The position numbers were made by a program, and so were the translations under genes. Of a DNA stretch of 64,000 nt, positions 2,379 to 25,598 are shown one piece after another. The notes beneath the pieces were generated by a model. It was not told where the DNA came from and did no database searches. It was given only the letters and a program-made list of their open reading frames with translations. Every line of letters begins with the position of its first letter. Position 1 is the first letter of the stretch. Source of the DNA: Nitrosopumilus sp. (GTDB lineage Archaea > Thermoproteota > Nitrososphaeria > Nitrososphaerales > Nitrosopumilaceae); assembly GCA_965223425.1 (NCBI GenBank), contig OZ245003.1:1888001-1952000 (forward strand), given 5' to 3'.

Positions 2379-3275
2379 ATGAAAAAAATAGGAATTATTG
2401 GGCTTGGGATGTTGGGAAATGCAGTAGCATTACACTTGCTTGATTTAGGTTTTGAAGTAACAGTTTACAATAGAACTGAAGAAAAAACAGCACAGGCCAA
2501 AGAAAAGGGAGCAATGGTTGCAACATCTCCAAAAGAAGTTGCAGAAAATTCAGAGTTAGTCATCACAGTAGTAAAAGATGCAGATGCTGTAAAAAAAGTA
2601 TCATTTGAAAAAAATGGAATCATAGAAGGAAAAAATGAAAGGCCAATTGTTGCAGACATGAGTACCATAGATCCATCAGAATCTAAAAACATCTCAAAGA
2701 AATTTCAAGAGCATGGGATTCAGAAGTTAGATATTCCGGTAATGGGGGGGCCAAATGTCGCCATAACAGGAGATTTGGTCATGATGGCATCAGGAGATAA
2801 AGAAAGTTTTGAGCATTGCAGAAATATTTTTGAAAAGACTGCAAACAAAGTGTTTTTCCTGGGAGAGTCAGGGACGGCTCATTCAGTCAAATTAGCCATG
2901 AATTTACAGATAACCATGCTTGCACTGGCGCTATCTGAAGGAATTACTCTTGTTAAAAAAGCAGATGTGGATCCAAAAATATTTCTTGAAATTTTAAACT
3001 CTACGTATTTTAAAACTGGAATGAGCGAAAAGAAAGCATACAAAATGATTGAAGGAAAATATGACACAACATTCACACTTGCCAATCTAAAAAAAGACAT
3101 TAGCACAATGATACGCGCCTCAGAATCCATGGGAATAGAACTGCCAATGACTAAAAAAGCCGAAGAGATCTACGAAAATGCAGTCAGGGAGGGATTTGGG
3201 GAGACAGATTATACTGGAATTATTGAATACATTAAAAAAATCAACAAAGGCAGACAAAACCGGATTTGTAAGTAG
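2379..3275 (+). CDS. NAD(P)-dependent beta-hydroxyacid dehydrogenase (3-hydroxyisobutyrate/6PGD family)
   Basis: IGIIGLGMLG Rossmann motif, DMST, DIPVMGG, catalytic KLAMN. Confidence 0.9.
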   Translation: MKKIGIIGLGMLGNAVALHLLDLGFEVTVYNRTEEKTAQAKEKGAMVATSPKEVAENSELVITVVKDADAVKKVSFEKNGIIEGKNERPIVADMSTIDPSESKNISKKFQEHGIQKLDIPVMGGPNVAITGDLVMMASGDKESFEHCRNIFEKTANKVFFLGESGTAHSVKLAMNLQITMLALALSEGITLVKKADVDPKIFLEILNSTYFKTGMSEKKAYKMIEGKYDTTFTLANLKKDISTMIRASESMGIELPMTKKAEEIYENAVREGFGETDYTGIIEYIKKINKGRQNRICK

Positions 3276-3318
3276 GATGCGGCAAAAATTCTATAAGTTA
3301 CGGCAATAATACGACTAT

Positions 3319-4080
3319 ATGCGATTAAACGGCAAAGTTGCAATTGTTACTGGGGCATCAAGTGACATTGGTAAGGGAATTGTAAAGAGATTCGTAGAAG
3401 AAGGAGCCAAGGTGATCCTAATTGCAAGAAATCTAGAGGGATTGGAAAAGACACGAAAAGAGATAAGAGATGAGGATTCAACAGCATCACTAACATGTGA
3501 CTTGACTGATGAATCACAGGCATTGCAAGTTGTAAATCAAATCATGGATACGTATGGAAAAATCGACATTTTGGTTAACAATGCAGGGGCAATCAATGAT
3601 CCTGTACATTTTCATGAAATGAAAGACGCAGAAATTAAAAATCTTATCGACGTTAACTTGTTAGGTGTTTTTCATATGACAAAAGCTGTGCTTTCAAAAA
3701 TGTCAGATGTTAAAAGCGGCACAATTGTAAACATTGGCTCTATTTCCAGTGAAAGAGCAATTCCAAGAGTTCACTTGGCAGTGTATTCGGCTACAAAAGC
3801 AGCGATTTCGATGTTTACAAAATCAATTGCAGTAGAATATGCAAGAAGAGATATCAGGTGCAACTGTGTCAATCCAGGAATTATCAATTCAGGCATGATA
3901 AAGCCATATCTTGATGATCCCCAAGCAAGAAAGGTTCTAGAAGAAAGATTGCCCCTAGCAAGAGTCGGTGAGCCTGTAGATGTCGCAAATGCCGCACTCT
4001 ATTTAGCATCTGACGAGTCAAACTGGGTCACGGGAACCATTCTAAATGTTGATGGCGGTAAAACAGCTTCAGAAGGATGA
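3319..4080 (+). CDS. Short-chain dehydrogenase/reductase (FabG-like)
   Basis: [17 protein letters not shown] catalytic motif, VDGG. Confidence 0.92.
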
Positions 4081-9074: not shown

Positions 9075-12000
9075 GTGTTTTTATCAACCCGGAATGCTTT
9101 TAGGCTTTTTAAGAAATTACATATTTTTTGTGATTTGAGCTCAAAGCGATGGCGTCTGGCAAACACGAAAAAGCAGAAAGGACAGCTCTCACAAGTTACA
9201 AAATTCCTTCCAGAAGCGGGGAATCTGTCTGCCTGCTCCGTGATAGTCCCCATAACGATGGACAAAAAAGAGGCGGTGGCCGCCGCCGGGGGCCTGGTCA
9301 GTGCAGGCATACGAAGCTTTGAGCTGTGGTGGGACAGCACGGAGAAGAGCCTCCGGTTCGTACTGGTGGGAGAGTCACAGGATCTCTCAAACTTCAAGCA
9401 GGCCTTTGCAAACATGTACCCCAACGCGTTCTTTGCCGACCTTGATCATACGGTTCCAACATGGTTTGACAAAAAATCAGAATATCAGATATTTGATGTC
9501 AGCACGTACCACGGCCACTATACGGCAGTCTTTGACCAGACCAGGGCGCACCAGATCATAACGCAGATTGCAAACACCATACAGCTATCAAAGCACGCGT
9601 GGATTCAATTTACGTTCAGGTATTACTCGTTTAATTCGTTTTTACGGCGGCACGTCACGCGCCTTGATGAAAAGGCCAGGGAGATAAAGCGCGGCAACTA
9701 TCTTAGCAACACCGAGATTATCATGAACCCGGACAAAAAACCGCATGACCACCCAGAGATGGGATACGACTTTACAAACAACTATGCCGGCCTCCAAAAA
9801 CATGCCACACTCAAGATGCAGAGCGCGCATCTTTTGATGAGCGTCAGGGGCATGATGAGCGGTGACTCCGAGATAAACCTGCACTTTGACGAGATAGAGG
9901 CACTTCCATTAGAAAACATCCACTCAAACCACGAGCATCTGACAAAGTTCCGGTATGATTATGGCGAGTTTTACTCTGACAAATCCAGGAAAACGCGGAT
10001 AAGGACAGGGGGGTCAAAGGAGAATCGCCGCAGGATAGAGATCTTTGAATCGCGTCTGCTGCCGGATCCGCGGCCGTTTCTGGACTCGGCGTCCGGAAGA
10101 TACTTTGAAAGAGGCCTGCTAGGCTACAGGGAGAGGGCACCACTGCCGTTTCTCGTGCTGAATTTATCGGAGATTCCGTTGTTTATCCACCTTCCAAATC
10201 CTACAACACCCAACATCGGCACCACCCGTGGCGTCTCGCTTCCAATAAAACCATCTGCAAAGACGGGCGCAAACATCGGGTTCTTCAAGATCAAAAAGGA
10301 CTTTGACTGGCAGTCAATCTGGGGAGGAATGGAGAAGTCAAAGGACATAGATGCCGCAGTCATATCGCCTACCGACTTTGCCAACCACTTTTACGGGGTG
10401 GGCGCGTCAGGCTCCGGCAAGACTTCGCTGATCAGACTGCTTGCCAAGCATCTCGAAGTCTGGAACAACAACGGCACGTTCCAGAACGCGTTCATATACG
10501 TGGATCCAAAGGGGGATGACTCTCACAAGTTCATAAAACAGTGCGAGCGGGGCACCGTATCGGAGGGACGCGCACATTTTCTTGATCCGCAGGAGACCAG
10601 GTTTTCCATAAACCCGCTGGAGCTTCCAGCATACCAGCCAAAGGAGCGTGAGGAGGTGGTATCAAGATATGTCGGGTATTTTATGAAGACCATCGAGGAG
10701 TGGTACCAGCAGTCGGCAAGCTATGTCCAGATGGAGAGGATATTCCGCGCGCTGCTGTTTTACATCTACATGAGGCATGATGCCCCCACGTTTCTGGACA
10801 TCCATGATATCATACTAAAGCTGCAAGACCGGGGAAATGACGCCCTGCCGCAGATAATCCAGACCTTTGGCGTGCCGGACCCCGAGATGAAGCAGGCCCT
10901 GAACAGCATTGCCACGCTAAAAGGCGATGCCTTTACGCCGCTGTTGAACAGGGTAGAGCAGTTTGCAACCGACCCGGTTCTAAAGAGGATGTTCTCTGTA
11001 CGGCACGGAACGGTAAACTTTGACGAACTGATACAGGCCGGCAGATACACCATAGTTAGGATCTCCCCGCTCAACATGCCCCAGCACGTACAGCCGCTTG
11101 CCATGCAGGCGTTCATACTGAAGCTGTGGTTTACCATACAGGAGAGGGCAAACAAGGTACAAAACGAAAAGGACAGGATACAGGTAGTCTTGGCCCTAGA
11201 CGAGTTTCAGATAGTAAAGGACCTCCAGGTGCTGCAGCTTATGCTGGAGCAGGCAAGGTCGCTTGGACTTGGATTGATCCTGTCACACCAGACCACGGAG
11301 CAGATAAGCGACAAGCAGCTGGGAATAATTTCCGGCAACTCTGGCACGCAGATGATAGGAAAGGTAAACGGCAAGGACGCCTCCAGGATAGCCCAGATAT
11401 GGGATCCACAGTTCCAAAAAGAGTTACAGCAGCAGTTTGCCAGCCAGGAATACTTTCACTGGACCGTCAGGGAAAAGTCACCGCCGGGTGAGGAGCAGCC
11501 GCCCCCCGTACAGTTCTGGCTGAACCTGCCGCCGGCCCTGCTTGTGGTAGATGAGGATTATGACGAGTTTTTACTCGGCCAGCTGGAAAAATACGGCAGG
11601 GGCAGGGTCGAGGATACGGCTACGAGGCAGATGATTACCCAAAAAAGCAAGTGGCTTGAGAACATTACCGTGTCGTTTCCGACACAGATGGAATGGAAGA
11701 TCATGCTCATGCTCAAAGAATCCGACATGAGGCAGGCAGACATGGTGGACAGACTGCGGGTTCAGAACCGGTCAGAGGTTCTTGCCGTCCTGAAGCAGAT
11801 GGTCTCAGACAAGACTCTGGAGAGGATTAATAGTTCCAGAACGTCCCCGTACACCCTGACTGCCAAGGCAAAAAAAGACTATTTCGAGTATGACAGTGCC
11901 GAGATTGGAACCGCACAGGATATCGAGGTGATGACCAAATCCATAGTCTCCACCTATCACAAAAAAGAAATGTTCGTGACAATGGCCGGGCAGAAGATCC

Positions 12001-12245
12001 GCAAGGGGCAGGATAGGACGGATCTTGTCGCCTATGACTATGGTTCCCAGCTTGCAATAAGCGTGGAGATCGAGTCAGAAAGCGAGGTGAACAGTCACCG
12101 GGAGCACGTAAGATACAACATGACAAAGTGGAAGAACATGGGATTCGACCGGTGTCACATGTGGTCCAAGAGCCCCAAGATCCTCAAGATTCACGACTCC
12201 CTTGATGGTGAAGAAAAAAAGGATGTAAGGTTGATGTCTATTTGA
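9075..12245 (+). CDS. VirD4/TraD/HerA (FtsK-HerA superfamily) ATPase with C-terminal winged helix and probable PD-(D/E)xK nuclease domain
   Basis: Walker A GASGSGKT, VDPKGD, INPLE, Walker B LALDEFQ, ARSLGLGLILSHQ; wHTH-like region ~aa 870-935; TDLVAYD...ISVEIES; true start uncertain. Confidence 0.85.
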   Translation: MFLSTRNAFRLFKKLHIFCDLSSKRWRLANTKKQKGQLSQVTKFLPEAGNLSACSVIVPITMDKKEAVAAAGGLVSAGIRSFELWWDSTEKSLRFVLVGESQDLSNFKQAFANMYPNAFFADLDHTVPTWFDKKSEYQIFDVSTYHGHYTAVFDQTRAHQIITQIANTIQLSKHAWIQFTFRYYSFNSFLRRHVTRLDEKAREIKRGNYLSNTEIIMNPDKKPHDHPEMGYDFTNNYAGLQKHATLKMQSAHLLMSVRGMMSGDSEINLHFDEIEALPLENIHSNHEHLTKFRYDYGEFYSDKSRKTRIRTGGSKENRRRIEIFESRLLPDPRPFLDSASGRYFERGLLGYRERAPLPFLVLNLSEIPLFIHLPNPTTPNIGTTRGVSLPIKPSAKTGANIGFFKIKKDFDWQSIWGGMEKSKDIDAAVISPTDFANHFYGVGASGSGKTSLIRLLAKHLEVWNNNGTFQNAFIYVDPKGDDSHKFIKQCERGTVSEGRAHFLDPQETRFSINPLELPAYQPKEREEVVSRYVGYFMKTIEEWYQQSASYVQMERIFRALLFYIYMRHDAPTFLDIHDIILKLQDRGNDALPQIIQTFGVPDPEMKQALNSIATLKGDAFTPLLNRVEQFATDPVLKRMFSVRHGTVNFDELIQAGRYTIVRISPLNMPQHVQPLAMQAFILKLWFTIQERANKVQNEKDRIQVVLALDEFQIVKDLQVLQLMLEQARSLGLGLILSHQTTEQISDKQLGIISGNSGTQMIGKVNGKDASRIAQIWDPQFQKELQQQFASQEYFHWTVREKSPPGEEQPPPVQFWLNLPPALLVVDEDYDEFLLGQLEKYGRGRVEDTATRQMITQKSKWLENITVSFPTQMEWKIMLMLKESDMRQADMVDRLRVQNRSEVLAVLKQMVSDKTLERINSSRTSPYTLTAKAKKDYFEYDSAEIGTAQDIEVMTKSIVSTYHKKEMFVTMAGQKIRKGQDRTDLVAYDYGSQLAISVEIESESEVNSHREHVRYNMTKWKNMGFDRCHMWSKSPKILKIHDSLDGEEKKDVRLMSI

Positions 12246-20159: not shown

Positions 20160-21705
20160 AGACTTTATGCATAATTGACCCGTCAAATTTTTTCTGCAGC
20201 ATACACTACCAAGACACACAAAGCCAGTCCAGGAAATTATTTAATTTTGATGCAAAAGATCATTGTAAATTCGCAGAAATTAGAAATCCGTGCGCACTCT
20301 TGCAGTGCCTCATGCACCCTGTGCTGTGCCGTCAATAACCAAGTGACGGCCGCTTTTTCTTTGCATCCCACAGCAGTTGAAAGTTCGCAAGGCCGGTACA
20401 CACAGCCAGCTCCTCGCGAAACTCCTCTACCGTGCCGTCATACGGGTCTGTCATCCTCGCCCACTGCTTTATTCTTCCGATGGCGTGCCCCGCCTTTACC
20501 CTCTTGGCGCTGATCCTTTTGTTCGAGTCCTTTTGCTGCTGCGTCAGCTCCGTCCGCGGCCTCTTTTTTTCCGGCATCTCAAGTGCCATTCCCGTGTAGT
20601 GATTGGCATCCCTGGTATCCCTTGTCTGCAAGCACCCGTATCCTGTCCTTTTCCGGAGTGTCTTTTTTGTACATGGATTTAGACCACCTGCCAAAGTCTA
20701 TCGGATCCTCTCTTATCATGGTAAGGTCGTGCGTCCCGCCCTCAAAGGACCTGCCTGCTGCAAGTATCAGGCCCTGCCCTGTTTGTTGTTATGGTGGTGT
20801 TAATCGTAAAGCGCTTCTTTTTGCCAGAGTACGTGTTTTTTCTTTTATCCCTGTCCTGCGGACGCTGCCTTGGCACCACCTCGGTGCCGTCAATTATGAT
20901 GGTTCTGTCCGGCATTAGCTGCTCTAGCTGCCCTGATGTCTCGGCCTTTTTTACCAGACGGGTCATCCTGTCTGCAGTAGGCAGGATCCCTGCCAGCACG
21001 GAATCTGCGAACTTGAGGTACCTGCACACGGTGGACTGGTCAACATCAAACAGTGCCCCAGAGCGTCCTGCGTCACGTTTGAGCGCTTGCGGAACAGCGC
21101 AAGCAGCAGGACGGACCTGCGGCCAGGCAGGCAGCGGTTTCCGGGATCCGGTGTTTCGTCCTCTGAAAAGAGCGGCGCGTCTTTGCTGTGCCTCTTTGAC
21201 TCTGCCACAAAGTCATTGCAGGTGTAGTCAAACTGGTCAAGGTCATACGGTAATCCCTGCAAGCTTTGCGCTGTTGTGCAGTATGCCGTGGATCACCTCC
21301 CTGATGTGCAGCAGCGACGTGTCCGTATCAGAGCGGCCTGCATCTGTAACGGCCCACAGGCTGTCCTCGCGCAGCAGCAGCTGCTCGCGCAGCAGGCCAA
21401 TCGTCTTCTCGCGCCTGCTGATTGCTGCGTCCTTTTGCTTGATTGCTCTGTTGTTCTGCTTGATTGCTCTGTTGTTCTGCTTGATTGCTCTGTTGTTCTG
21501 CTTGATTGCTCTGTTGTTCTGCTTGATTGCTGTGTCCTTTTGCTTGATTGCTGTGTCCTTTTGCTTGATTGCTGTGTCCTTTTGTTTGAGCTCCCTTTGC
21601 AGCCTGCGTATAGTCTGTTCTGAAGATTCCATTACCTGTTGCGGCGATCAAAATGGATCTAAATCTTTCGGAAAAATTTTTATGATTCAATTATGCATAA
21701 AGTCT
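20160..21705 (-). mobile_element. IS5-like (DDE_Tnp_4) element, copy 1, frameshifted, 3-bp flanks AGT
   Basis: IRs agactttatgcataattga / tcaattatgcataaagtct; IIDGTEV, YSGKKK, HD, ADKGYQG motifs split over several ORFs; N-terminal heptad ORF 21243-21632. Confidence 0.88.
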
Positions 21706-22383
21706 AGTATACCGCATAATGAAAAAGAACGGCATGGTGGCACCATCTGCTGCAAAGTCAAAGAAGCGCAAGTACGTCCGCTTTGAGCGAAAATACTCCA
21801 ATGCCATGTGGCATGTGGACTGGCATGCCATGAAGGATCCGCGCTTTAAGGGACTGCAGCTAGTCACGTATCTTGATGATGCCTCAAGATGCATTACTGG
21901 TGCTGCATTGTTTGGGCATGCCACCTCAGAGAATGCGGTAATGACACTCAGGCTTGCAATTAAGAGGTTTGGTGCGCCTGCATCCATACTGTCTGATAAC
22001 GGCTCGTGCTTTGTAGGACAGAACGGCAGGAAGAGGAGGAAGAAATCAAAAGAAGGCAGAGCGTGGAGACCAACCCCCTTTGAGGGAGAGCTTCTGCAAA
22101 AGGACATCATACTGATAACTCAAGGCCGTACCACTGCAGACCAACGGCAAGCTGGAGCGCCTTCACCGCAGTATCGAAGATGAGATATGGCACTATGAGA
22201 GCCTGAGAAAGTATGTCGGCCATTACAACGAGAAAAGGCTGCACTTTTCACTGGACATTGAGAACTGAGGTTCCATTGCAGGCATTTAGTAACAAAAAAG
22301 TACCAGAAGCGATCAGAAAAAGTGACCCAAAATGGATGAAGAGAGATGCAGATGACTAGCGGACCTACTTTCCGTATATTACA
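21706..22383 (+). pseudogene. IS481-family transposase, C-terminal half and right end
   Basis: YRIMKKNGMV...RFERKYSNAMWHVDWH...LDDASR...LSDNGSCF...QTNGKLER; ends ...ATTACA (TGT terminus). Confidence 0.85.
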
Positions 22384-22415
22384 ACTCTGGTTGACAGCGA
22401 TCAATTCATATATAT

Positions 22416-22466
22416 TATAAAAACAAAAATCAAGGAATTTTTTTATAAAAAAATAATTTTTATAAA
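22416..22466. repeat. Left site of paired 51-bp AT-rich structure
   Basis: 21-bp arm tataaaaacaaaaatcaagga (22416-22436) + 25-bp core tttataaaaaaataatttttataaa (22442-22466). Confidence 0.9.
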
Positions 22467-22489
22467 CTAGGCGCAATCAAGTCCATAGG

Positions 22490-23734
22490 ATGGCCAACAT
22501 CTGGGCAGGCCTTGGGCTGACTGACAACCCATATGATCCAAGACCGCTTTCAATTGATACAGACGACAGGAAACTGTTTGTAGGCCGTGCAGAGACACTC
22601 GACGAATTCAATATCCTTCTAAGCAGCACGAGGGGCGGCATGATAATAGTCGAGGGCGGGGTGGGAGTAGGCAAGACAAGTTTTGTAAATATCGGCCTAT
22701 ATGACAAGTTCAAGTCAGAAAGATACCTTCCCTGCGACAAGATAGAGCTGGAAGGCAACATGGACATTATCCAGTTTGTTCTTTCAGTCTTTTCAAACAT
22801 GTTTCACAGCATTGAAAAATGTGACAGGACAGAAAGGCTGGGCAGGTTTGCCGTACATGAAAAAGCAAGGGCCCTGTTGAGCCAGACCATCCAGTCCAGC
22901 TGGGGCGGCGAGGTAAAGTTTCTCGGAACAGGCGGGGGAGTGAGCAGGCAAAAATCTGCAACATCTCCAGTTGCAGTCGTCCTATCTCCTATTGTTTCAG
23001 TCATGAATGAGTGGATAGACTTTGTCATAAACAAGCTAAACTACTCTGCCATCATAGTCCCGCTTGACAACTTGGATATTGTCGATGACATGGATATTGT
23101 GGGATTTTTAAACAAAACAAGGGACACCCTGATGGGGTTTGATGGAGTATGGTGGGTGCTTGTTGGCAAGCCAAACCTGTTCTCGCTGCTAGAAAGAAAG
23201 GCAAGCAGGGTAAGCGAGATGATAACCGGAAGTCCGGTAAAACTTGATCCGTTATCAAAAAAAGAAGTCCACGGGATGATAAAATTAAGAATCAAAAACC
23301 TTTCAACAGATAAGATCGAAGCACCGGTTCCAGAAAAAGTGATAGATATTCTGTATGATGTCTCAAAAGGTGAGGCAAGATACATCCTAAAGCGATGCGG
23401 CGATCTCATCCTAAAGTTCCATGCAAAATTTCCTTCAGAAAAGACTGTTCCAGAAGAGACGGCCGTCAAGATGCTGTCAGTCATGGCCAAGGAAAGAATT
23501 GACGCCGCCAGCCTCTCACCTTCAGACAGAAAGATTCTGGAGAAGATGGCCAAAAAAGAAAGGTTCCAAAACAAGGACTACAGGTACTTTGGCAAGCCTT
23601 CTGCCCAGAATTTTAACTATGTGATCAAAAAGCTGTTTTCACTGGGGTTGATAACCAGGGAGGAGTCGTCGGGCAGGGACGTATACTATCGCACAACCGG
23701 CGATGTCAACATGGTTTTTGGCGTGAAGTCCTAA
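22490..23734 (+). CDS. AAA+/STAND-like (Orc1/Cdc6-type architecture) ATPase with C-terminal winged helix
   Basis: NPY..PL, FVGR, Walker A GGVGVGKTS, Walker B IIVPLDNLD, S.GEAR sensor-2, LSPSDRKIL...LFSLGLITREE..RDVYY wHTH. Confidence 0.85.
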   Translation: MANIWAGLGLTDNPYDPRPLSIDTDDRKLFVGRAETLDEFNILLSSTRGGMIIVEGGVGVGKTSFVNIGLYDKFKSERYLPCDKIELEGNMDIIQFVLSVFSNMFHSIEKCDRTERLGRFAVHEKARALLSQTIQSSWGGEVKFLGTGGGVSRQKSATSPVAVVLSPIVSVMNEWIDFVINKLNYSAIIVPLDNLDIVDDMDIVGFLNKTRDTLMGFDGVWWVLVGKPNLFSLLERKASRVSEMITGSPVKLDPLSKKEVHGMIKLRIKNLSTDKIEAPVPEKVIDILYDVSKGEARYILKRCGDLILKFHAKFPSEKTVPEETAVKMLSVMAKERIDAASLSPSDRKILEKMAKKERFQNKDYRYFGKPSAQNFNYVIKKLFSLGLITREESSGRDVYYRTTGDVNMVFGVKS

Positions 23735-23755
23735 AGCTGGTTTTCGGGTAAAATC

Positions 23756-23806
23756 TTTATAAAAAAATAATTTTTATAAAAAAAATCCTTGATTTTTGTT
23801 TTTATA
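23756..23806. repeat. Right site of paired 51-bp AT-rich structure
   Basis: Identical 25-bp core at 23756-23780 (direct) + tccttgatttttgtttttata at 23786-23806 (perfect reverse complement of the left arm). Confidence 0.9.
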
Positions 23807-23964
23807 GCGTATGAACCCTAAATCGATTATGATTTGCATGGGGTTGCAGAAACTGAAAATCAGACACTTGGAGCAGCAGCGTCTCTTTTGGGCATTGCCG
23901 TAACCAGGCAATCCATCCTAACTCGTCCACTTTGCAGTTTCAAACTCGGCTTTGACCGTCACAT

Positions 23965-25314
23965 CAGTAGTTCCCAGATGTAGATTTGTGCCCAGATGTA
24001 GATTTATGCTCAGACACTGGTGCGTTATCGCATAATAACTGCAATGCAAAGATCCAGATTAGGTTACGGTGTGCAAGATGTCATGAGCCTTCAAACACAA
24101 GACGATCTGATCGCACACCAGTACAATATAACATCAAACCGGTTTAAAATCCTGCGCTCGTCGTTTCAAAAGCTTGGCATGCCAATGTCTGAGAGGCACA
24201 ACGCCGTATACGGATGCAACGACATACTGGACGTGCCAATCAGGGCGTCTGAGAGAAACACGTTTGTAGAATCCCTCGTACGGCGCAACAGGCTTCAAGA
24301 CACGGGTGCACGTACGCCTGATGCAGACCTGGTCATGTCTGCAGTCCGTGGCGTCGAACCGGCAGACGTGCAGGGCTGGTGTGCAAAGACGCTGGCACGC
24401 ACGGTACGGCACGCCTGCCGTGCAGGAATGCTGCAGGACATCGACGCCATTGCAATAGACGTTACGGACATACCATACATGGAGAACAGCTGCAGGAGCA
24501 TACAAGAAAGTCGCGTCCAAGGACAGGAACATCCACGTTTCTCTCGTATGTCGCAGTACACGGAGTCGGCAGGGACTCCTCGCAGATTGTCCTGGAATCG
24601 CAGCTGCTGCCGGCAAAGGAAAAACTGGCCGATTTTATAGCCAAAACACGCACGAAAATCCTCAGAGGGGGCGCATATTCAAAGAATGTGTTCCTGTACG
24701 ACCGCGCCTTTTACAGCGTTGACTGCATGACAGAGGCAGGAAAGGGCGGGTGCCGCTACATCATGCCTGTCATCATGAACTCCAAGATCAAGAAGATAGT
24801 CAAGCTGTATGAGGACGGAAAGGCAAACCAGGTATCGCAACAGTCAATGACCAACAAAGACGGCGCAACTGTGACCTACAACCTTGTAATTGTCAAAAGA
24901 GACAGGAAGAAGAAGAAGGAAGAGGAGCAATACATTGCATTTGCAACAAACATTCCCATCAGGAGCGCCAGAGCCATGACAGGCATCATACCGGAGCAGT
25001 ACCGCAAGAGATGGGGCATCGAGACGGGGTTTCGCGTCATAAAGGAGATCATGGGCAGGACATGCAGCAACTCCCTGGCTGTGAGGCTGCTGATGTTTTA
25101 CCTGCCGCTGCTGCTGTACAACCTGTGGAGGATTGCCAGGTTCTGCCTTGATGCAGGAAAGAGGCATGGAAGAGTGTCTTCTGCGGGAAAAAAACTCACC
25201 ATGGTGTTGTTTATTGTGCATATTACAAGCAGAAACGAGTTGTTTGTCAATGATCGAGGCAAGTAGAACCGATGCTAGTTGTGGTTGCGGTAAATCTACA
25301 TCTGGGAACTACTG
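23965..25314 (+). mobile_element. ISH3/IS4-like IS, copy 2 (transposase frameshifted near 24478), 4-bp TSD ACAT
   Basis: Same IRs as 12492-13858; acat at 23961-23964 and 25315-25318; ORFs 24020-24640 and 24379-25266. Confidence 0.9.
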
Positions 25315-25598
25315 ACATGCGCGCAGTTTGGGCAAGTATCAGCTCCATCCCCCCCCCCCCGGGGGGGTTGTTTTTGATCAAAAAAACTAATTTGTCTGTC
25401 AGGAATCTTAGTTCCTGTGTGTGCCAGATGGTAACTCTTCCAGTAACCATCTTTTCTTTTGTTCATTGAAGGGGCACACACACTCTTGATCCAAATGCGG
25501 CGCTGTCCAAAAGACGTAATTCGGCACTCAGGGAATTACGCAACAACTTTGTTTACTTTAGAAAATTTATAAAGTATATAGTACATATCGTGTTTAAC

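Follow-up and report, generated by a model that had tools for sequence, protein, structure and literature searches.

A candidate mobile one-gene cassette with an Orc1-like AAA+ ATPase between paired end sites in Nitrosopumilus sp.

We identified a 1.39-kb unit with a single gene inside, encoding an AAA+ ATPase with a C-terminal winged helix, in a 64-kb stretch of the Nitrosopumilus sp. genome (assembly GCA_965223425.1, contig OZ245003.1, positions 1,888,001 to 1,952,000; hereafter the window, in whose numbering coordinates are given). The gene is bounded by two 51-nt sites, and comparison of its copies shows a discrete unit that has been transferred whole between ammonia-oxidising archaea. The explanation that we prefer, with slightly less than even confidence, is that of a self-contained, horizontally mobile one-gene cassette, in which the end sites would act both as the gene's own promoter and operator and as end-recognition elements, probably bound by the Orc1-like winged helix of the encoded protein. 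Under this explanation, the sites at either end would be cis elements of the cassette itself rather than the ends of another insertion sequence (IS). Below, G000 denotes the source genome (2.64 Mb), other G-numbers denote other genomes, and L-numbers denote loci.

End sites and promoter of the cassette

The two sites form a 51-nt inverted repeat (22416–22466 and 23756–23806) that is 88% complementary, with 1289 nt between the arms; because the cores within the sites are identical in direct orientation, the mismatches of this repeat are confined to the 5-nt core centre and the joint between arm and core. The unit comprises the following features:

22416–22436, + strand: left outer arm (21 nt), a terminal inverted repeat that is the perfect complement of 23786–23806 and holds an ATCAAGG box
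22437–22466, + strand: left AT-only block (30 nt) with two TATA-like palindromes, distal T7-AT-A7 and proximal T5-AT-A3
22442–22466, + strand: left core (25 nt), defined by sequence and pattern search
22475–22482, + strand: AATCAAGT box between core and start codon, a second same-direction copy of the ATCAAG motif of the left arm
22490–23734, + strand: AAA+ ATPase gene, an open reading frame (ORF) of 414 aa with a C-terminal winged helix
23756–23780, + strand: right core (25 nt), a perfect direct repeat of the left core
23786–23806, − strand: right outer arm (21 nt), an inverted copy of the left arm

This architecture of two 51-bp sites with inverted 21-bp outer arms and identical, direct 25-bp cores had been described in an earlier annotation made from the sequence alone (the original prediction), and both the sequence and a pattern search confirm it. 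The tight fit of the gene that was also described is borne out by an ORF that starts 23 nt after the left site and a stop codon that ends 21 nt before the right site; likewise, the ORF list and Pfam show no transposase or recombinase ORF inside the unit.

When the upstream flank was aligned locally to the downstream flank, z was 20.3 in inverted and 13.1 in direct orientation (100 shuffles), so the match between the two sites is far beyond chance. The genome-wide search for both site parts that the original prediction had proposed found the core (≤3 mismatches) at just two places in G000, with 0 matches for the reversed-pattern control, and the 21-nt arm at the two sites plus one 3-mismatch match elsewhere (control, 1). 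The cassette is single-copy in G000, where unique spacers of 29 and 153 nt part it from the neighbouring repeats. Two findings that would have spoken against a unit of its own were not made, as close homologs do share the flanks and the sites are not the ends of a multicopy IS or miniature inverted-repeat transposable element (MITE) in G000; multicopy ends of this kind were rejected because the sites occur twice and no other inverted pair of the 18-nt terminus (≤3 mismatches) is present in that genome. The folding energy of the right site as single-stranded DNA is −8.9 kcal/mol (z −3.4); the core hairpin has a 10-bp stem and a 5-nt loop, its A/T-only stems being weak (−5.6 kcal/mol). No Rfam match was found in 21800–24400.

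The left site is probably also the promoter of the ATPase gene, because its proximal TTTATA, at 22459, starts 31 nt before the ATG at 22490, the usual TATA distance in this genome, and this TTTATA is the inferred TATA box. Among 1892 ORFs of G000, TTTAWA starts peak 28–31 nt before the ATG (57 at these 4 positions, against mostly 0–6 at each other position), which is the signature of the TATA boxes of leaderless genes. TTTAWA at −31 and −48 is kept in all six close (group-1) loci. Moreover, the left 51-nt site is identical at 51 of 51 positions between the window and one G140 copy (G140a; arm 21/21), though dS of the gene is 0.8, and the left site is thus far more conserved than synonymous sites. 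The AATCAAGT box is kept in L008 (AATCAAGT), partial in G339, and lost in G140; it is possibly a half operator.

Copies in other genomes and evidence for movement

Homologs of the ATPase were found in none of 36 same-genus genomes (first draw), in 10 of 400 same-family genomes, in which they occur in 8 of 27 genera including that of G000, and in 15 of 401 same-class genomes, G000 included; status as a core-gene (initiator) was rejected on the genus and family counts. Close copies show 77–82% protein identity and lie in unrelated surroundings. Between the window and L008 (genome G123, a different genus; 80% protein identity), DNA similarity is limited to 22414–23812, and in run X3 one contig stops matching the window at 22414; in most comparisons, similarity breaks within a few bases of the outer arms. 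Eight left contexts could be compared (the window, L008 in G123, the two copies in G140, and G339, G254, G411, and G009), and their flanking sequences begin to differ immediately before (AT)TATAAAAAC. AT precedes the left end in all eight contexts and follows the right end in three of the four two-ended copies (L008, G254, and G009), the window having GC instead; AT is its own complement, so that AT flanks are indistinguishable from a longer inverted repeat. Lineage-specific changes match in both arms (TCAAGAAAT in L008 and TATAAAAACAAGA in G009), which points to maintenance of the two ends in matching form.

The 36-nt arm plus core was found in 5 of 401 family genomes: G000, G123, G140, and G339, which have the gene or a fragment of it, and G411, which retains the left site alone. 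Copy number is one per genome except for G140, in which two copies lie between IS630-like genes and the right site is missing, replaced by an IS630-like element; both G140 genes are intact without the right site, which is therefore dispensable for the gene or its expression. The copy in G339 is truncated after codon 104, and that in G123 adjoins a repeat-protein gene. The copy in G254 (L013) lies approx. 110 nt from two CRISPR arrays; an IS5-family element, which has inverted repeats of its own and a 9-nt duplication, interrupts the left site of this copy. The adjacent CRISPR arrays of L013 (+ strand, 1–1300, beyond the right arm) have 37-nt repeats in 12 and 6 copies. The L008 copy of the ATPase gene has a frameshift or stop within its Walker A stretch (1170–1200), and is either a pseudogene or the result of an assembly error. 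A plasmid, phage, or virus origin was also considered and set aside, as tblastn found no ATPase homologs in PLSDB or INPHARED, and neither the protein profile nor the site pattern found any in viral contigs.

The same comparison bears on the simplest alternative, namely that the ATPase gene is an ordinary resident regulator with a palindromic promoter and terminator, and that its apparent mobility reflects differential loss. The TATA position suits a plain promoter and, as T-runs could terminate archaeal transcription, the right site could serve as a terminator; however, the unrelated flanks and sharp breakpoints in the eight contexts, the scatter of homologs over genera, and neighbours that include IS elements, CRISPR arrays, and a gene like those of integrative-conjugative elements make this reading highly improbable, and we regard it as already disfavoured.

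A second alternative is a non-autonomous transposon (a mobile insertion cassette or a MITE with a passenger), in which the arms would be the terminal inverted repeats of a trans-acting DDE transposase, the ATPase its cargo, and the cores a promoter and a terminator. The perfect 21-nt inverted arms and the precise junctions in eight contexts fit this explanation, and the AT at the ends could reflect a 2-nt duplication or insertion at a TA/AT target. In addition, the cassette lies within an IS-rich island, the G140 copies are surrounded by IS630-like genes, and a 78-bp solo form in G009, described below, resembles an internally deleted MITE. On the other hand, no IS in G000 has matching termini, and both the cassette and the solo form are single-copy (the two copies of G140 apart). 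An IS630 parent was rejected because the DDE_3 element of the window has unrelated inverted repeats. Trans-mobilisation by an IS200/IS605 element was likewise rejected, as Y1_Tnp (PF01797) gave 0 matches in G000 and 0 in four of the five other hosts, G254 having only a fragment with an internal stop. Together with evidence from more distant relatives (see the next section), these results make a passenger transposon rather unlikely.

The cores themselves raise a third alternative, a site-specific recombination cassette (IMEX- or integron-like) in which the 25-nt cores would be crossover sites for a host tyrosine recombinase. It would account for the identical direct cores, their palindrome-centre-palindrome layout, and a relic with one core in G009, a genome of the same genus that carries a single-copy 78-bp arm-core-arm sequence without the gene; on its left, this relic is flanked by an IS present in 3 copies, the end of which is 2 nt away. 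The relic has the structure expected from recombination between two direct cores, but slippage or homologous recombination between 25-nt repeats would explain it equally well as a dedicated enzyme. Phage_integrase family genes are found elsewhere in G000 (12 matches, 10 of them above the cut-off, none at the cassette), but no recombinase gene lies in or beside any copy in the loci read. The core centre is 5 nt long, whereas known Xer and integrase sites have centres of 6–8 nt; it is direct in the window and in L008 but inverted in L013, and therefore core orientation is not essential. In addition, the outer arms travel with the unit, so that the junctions are not at the cores, and the core is not resident in relatives: the 25-mer (≤2 mismatches) was found in 3 of 40 other genomes of the genus, two of the matches being relics of the element and one lying in an AT-rich stretch between repeats resembling origin recognition boxes (ORBs), for which reason a dif-like resident site was also rejected. 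We thus consider such a cassette very unlikely.

These results change parts of the original prediction. Its Xer-like (tyrosine-recombinase) layout is not supported, given the 5-nt centre, the inverted order in L013, related sites in either order, and the absence of a genus-wide site, and the direct core centre to which it pointed is not a constant trait of the element, since the whole L013 site, centre included, is a pure inverted repeat. Its excisable one-gene cassette is upheld as far as the unit is discrete, has moved, and has a one-core form in G009; for excision itself, the assembled contigs (Logan) of 4 runs, in which rare forms cannot appear, contained neither a circle nor a deletion joint at the cores. 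A 1635-nt contig spans 22355–23989 without differences. The remaining core-like 25-mer of the genus survey, the sole one in G023 (L032, ~1500), lies between inverted GAGTGGAAA / TTTCCACTC repeats, which resemble those upstream of the G000 orc1/cdc6 gene (L057, C1:147965–148150); it thus sits in what looks like the AT-rich stretch of a chromosomal origin.

The ATPase and the boxes around its relatives

The protein contains a Walker A motif (GVGVGKT, ~57–63) and a Walker B region (PLDNLD, ~191–196); Walker A (GVGKT) and other motifs are invariant across the homolog alignment. The AlphaFold model (24 homologs; pLDDT 86.6) predicts an Orc1/Cdc6-type AAA+ fold with a helical insert, a lid, and a C-terminal winged helix. 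Its best structure match is an archaeal Orc1/Cdc6 (2qby_A; Z 17.7, 319 residues aligned over 8–413), Foldseek gave another archaeal Orc1/Cdc6 (1w5t_A) at E 5e-10, and the next matches are the archaeal AAA+/winged-helix ATPases 2qen and 2fna; TnsC, MuB, NLR/STAND, and BrxC structures score lower (Z ~12–14; NLR/STAND ~13, below Orc1). Pfam matches are all sub-threshold (nSTAND1, 21.1 bits with a cut-off of 27.1; AAA_16, 16.1 with a cut-off of 32.6; HTH_27), NCBIfam gave nothing significant for the ATPase, and a PDB profile search gave ORC1 at E 0.016. The family check called for in the original prediction thus favours Orc1/Cdc6 by structure, without a significant match to any sequence family. 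Membership of the STAND, nSTAND1, or KAP families was rejected, as the Pfam scores are below the cut-offs and KAP is merely a precomputed tag on some homologs; membership of a defence system was rejected as well, the best PADLOC match (E 0.0078) being to the winged helix-turn-helix part of Csa3.

The ATPase is not a canonical Orc1/Cdc6, because the host has a separate Cdc6_C-positive gene, the only one in G000, with ORB-like repeats upstream, and a profile comparison (hhalign) of the ATPase with this host Orc1/Cdc6 gave only 15% probability. dN/dS between copies is 0.07–0.2, which points to purifying selection and therefore to a functional protein. The close family is small (28 matches in a 90%-clustered database), while a wider superfamily of the same length comprises 333 cluster representatives at E ≤ 1e-30 and 823 at 1e-10; in the Atlas, the nearest cluster is mostly Nitrososphaerota, and the wider superfamily is largely bacterial.

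An integrated mini-replicon is a further alternative, in which the Orc1-like protein would bind the arms and boxes as origin elements and melt the 30-nt AT-only cores, the free form being a one-core circle of ~1.3 kb. The best structure matches are archaeal Orc1/Cdc6 proteins bound to origin DNA, each inverted arm faces an AT-only block, in the manner of an unwinding element flanked by ORB pairs, and the direct cores would permit a 1314-bp circle (the core-to-core spacing), to which the G009 relic is the matching chromosomal product. Some distant relatives also have iteron-like tandem units upstream of the gene (group 3, below), and a survey of thaumarchaeal integrated elements records Cdc6/Orc1 homologues on such elements (PMC6563490). 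However, the ATPase has no Cdc6_C or ORC Pfam match and only the low profile probability given above, no ORB-like repeats of the type upstream of the host orc1 are present at the cassette, there are relatives in bacteria, which lack MCM, and homologs are absent from the plasmid, phage, and viral-contig collections. The missing circle junction is weak evidence in the same direction, and 30 nt is short for an unwinding element. We judge a mini-replicon unlikely; as regards the portable origin-initiator module of the original prediction, the protein has the Orc1/Cdc6 fold but is not a canonical Orc1/Cdc6, and it has bacterial relatives.

Boxes were also found around more distant homologs:

Group 2 (L016, L017, L018, and L009), 51–54% identity to the window protein: ACTTTATAAAGT-type boxes, sites on both sides, direct in three loci and inverted in L009
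Group 3, 40–42% identity: tandem 68-nt units with CTTTACAAAG boxes, upstream only
Group 4, 42–43% identity: three AGTTTATAAACT boxes, upstream only
L012, 24% identity: GCCTATCATAGGC boxes on both sides

The group-2 sites are repeats of ~57 nt that occur just twice per genome, and the similarity between L016 and L017 is bounded by both repeats (1437–2863). Groups 2 and 4 both have perfect palindromes of 12–14 nt. Matching upstream and downstream sites are present in 8 of 18 loci, in mixed orientation, which would fit symmetric protein-binding boxes better than the rule of a transposase or recombinase. The flanking sites track the protein lineage, and thus appear to belong to the ATPase. Both observations bear on the passenger transposon: the group-2 and L012 cassettes are bounded by direct, not inverted, repeats, and homologs of the ATPase with as little as 24% identity still have flanking boxes, which a passenger should not keep. 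Conservation of the right arm across groups is a lead only, the pattern TTGATT...TGTT..ATA being found in the window, L064, and L067 alone, with a near match in L020. Palindromes of the type CTTGTAAA upstream of two cassettes (2 of 19 loci) were set aside as a probable coincidence. In L016 (G092), a 284-aa ORF lies directly after the downstream site (2897–3751, gene-forward), with an N-terminus that by eye resembles an actin/ParM-type ATPase; this ORF is missing around the otherwise 90%-identical unit in L017.

Of the three readings in the original prediction, operator sites for the protein's own winged helix-turn-helix are thus best supported, if indirectly, by the TATA position, the conservation of the left site, and the boxes that follow the protein lineage. 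In the self-contained cassette that we prefer, the winged helix would bind the TATA-overlapping palindromes and the ATCAAG boxes at the left site, leading to autoregulation; the same factor would also bind the 21-nt arms, which would mark both ends of the unit for movement. The direct core orientation would not be required but would have become fixed in this lineage, probably through gene conversion between the cores, whose palindromes allow pairing in either orientation; direct cores would make the gene deletable by core-by-core recombination.

Several results weigh against this explanation. A downstream site is absent in 10 of 18 loci, including both G140 copies, groups 3 and 4, L010, and L069; L067, also among these ten, shows a direct match between its upstream and downstream flanks (z 16.5) that comes from outside the unit. 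The archaeal boxes all contain TATA-like words, and their apparent co-variation with the protein may in part simply reflect different promoters. No nuclease or recombinase domain was found in the ATPase with Pfam, NCBIfam, or PADLOC. As the original prediction had also observed, no target-site duplication is visible; none of ≥3 nt is present in the flanks, which read ...ATATATAT and GCGTATGA..., respectively. Similarity between the window and the G140 copies runs 18 nt past the left arm. Finally, an unoccupied target site was not found, the right spacer of the window occurring in 0 of 55 other genomes of the genus, and the left flank of G254 giving just a 107-nt partial match in G243, which is not an empty site.

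A bolder possibility is that the cassette represents an undescribed class of autonomous selfish element, whose sole protein, an Orc1/Cdc6-like AAA+/winged-helix ATPase, would recognise its own ends, repress its promoter, and drive its maintenance or spread. Replication might then be fired from the 1.3-kb one-core circle, or assembly on both ends might recruit host recombination or replication enzymes. We consider this improbable; if true, the several hundred related proteins of single-domain architecture in bacteria and archaea (the 333 representatives) would be similar "initiator-only" elements.

Genomic surroundings and comparison with known systems

The window is a mosaic in GC content and is rich in mobile DNA:

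9075–12245: TrwB/TraG-type coupling-protein ORF, 1056 aa
12655–13809: DDE_Tnp_1
20332–20694: DDE_Tnp_4 fragment
20700–21710: ~1-kb repeat with ~20 or more genome copies at 85–97% identity
21719–22360: remnant of an rve (IS481/IS3-like) transposase gene split over three frames, in a repeat that stops at 22386 (29 nt short of the cassette) and has other genome copies
22387–22415: unique left spacer (29 nt) from the end of the rve-type IS remnant to the left arm; the stretch from 22398 onward (18 nt) is common to both G140 copies
23807–23959: unique right spacer (153 nt) from the right arm to the ISH3-like IS, absent from the 55 other genomes of the genus
23960–25319: ISH3-like (DDE_Tnp_1) IS, ~30 copies at 92–95% identity
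33857–34846: DDE_3 (IS630-like) element

The 1056-aa ORF suggests an integrative-conjugative element nearby. The ~1-kb repeat carries a 331-aa ORF (20791–21786) without a Pfam or NCBIfam match, as well as 21-nt tandem repeats at 21500–21604, and could be an uncharacterised IS or a repeated gene family. A pairing of the ATPase with the adjacent rve gene (IstA/IstB- or TnsB/TnsC-like) was ruled out, as the rve remnant is frameshifted and belongs to the separate repeat listed above, with copies elsewhere, and as no rve gene adjoins the ATPase in the other loci read. A single ORF of 7840 aa (39942–63464, − strand) with PKD, Ig-like, SGL, and ANF-receptor-type domains lies in a stretch of 55–60% GC and encodes a giant surface protein. 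The IS load of G000 is unusually heavy compared to congeners of 1.2–2.2 Mb. Contig C2 of this genome (123 kb; GC 47%, as compared to 41% for C1) holds four of its 12 Phage_integrase matches and may be a plasmid or an unplaced integrated element.

Few mobile elements have been characterised in ammonia-oxidising archaea, and the cassette offers a tractable case both for gene movement between these genomes without an encoded transposase and for the role of the Orc1-like AAA+/winged-helix ATPases, of which bacteria and archaea have many that are uncharacterised. Should the protein bind the sites that flank its gene, the two together would also provide a ready-made orthogonal DNA-protein recognition module from a group without genetic tools.

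Compared to known systems, the cassette is partly new. RAYTs are HUH/Y1 transposases whose gene is bracketed by REP palindromes that its own product recognises, the REPs being highly repeated; the cassette likewise has one gene between palindromic sites, but the product is an AAA+ ATPase, and the sites are found nowhere but beside the gene. Plasmid partition and replication modules have cis sites on both sides of a gene, or iterons by the rep gene, and the cassette shares with them repeated boxes over the promoter and downstream, as well as iteron-like units in group 3; in contrast to these modules, it has a single fused ATPase/DNA-binding protein and is chromosomal, with no plasmid homologs found in PLSDB. 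The direct-order end hairpins of IS200/IS605 elements are similar to those of the cassette, but the Y1 transposase is absent from G000. Mobile insertion cassettes and MITEs with passengers are like the cassette in having terminal inverted repeats around one non-transposase gene, precise junctions, and a short deleted derivative; the cassette differs in having no parent IS, one copy per genome, ends that include the gene's promoter, and distant ATPase relatives that keep analogous boxes, some in direct order. The thaumarchaeal survey cited above reports transposons with passenger genes as undetected in archaea (PMC6563490), and a literature search that covered its sources in part returned no published description of an element of this kind.

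The closest likeness of the protein is to archaeal Orc1/Cdc6 and to the non-initiator paralog Orc1-2, a DNA-damage regulator of Sulfolobales, with which the ATPase shares domain order and fold. It differs from Orc1/Cdc6 in having no significant sequence-family match, in its patchy, accessory rather than core distribution, in its bacterial relatives, and in its sites, which are AT-rich TATA-like palindromes on both sides of the gene and not ORB elements. Two reports provide a precedent for an Orc1/Cdc6 paralog acting as a transcription regulator (PMC6061795, PMC9738581); like Orc1-2, the cassette ATPase, whose gene adjoins its presumed binding sites, may thus be a DNA-binding regulator rather than an initiator.

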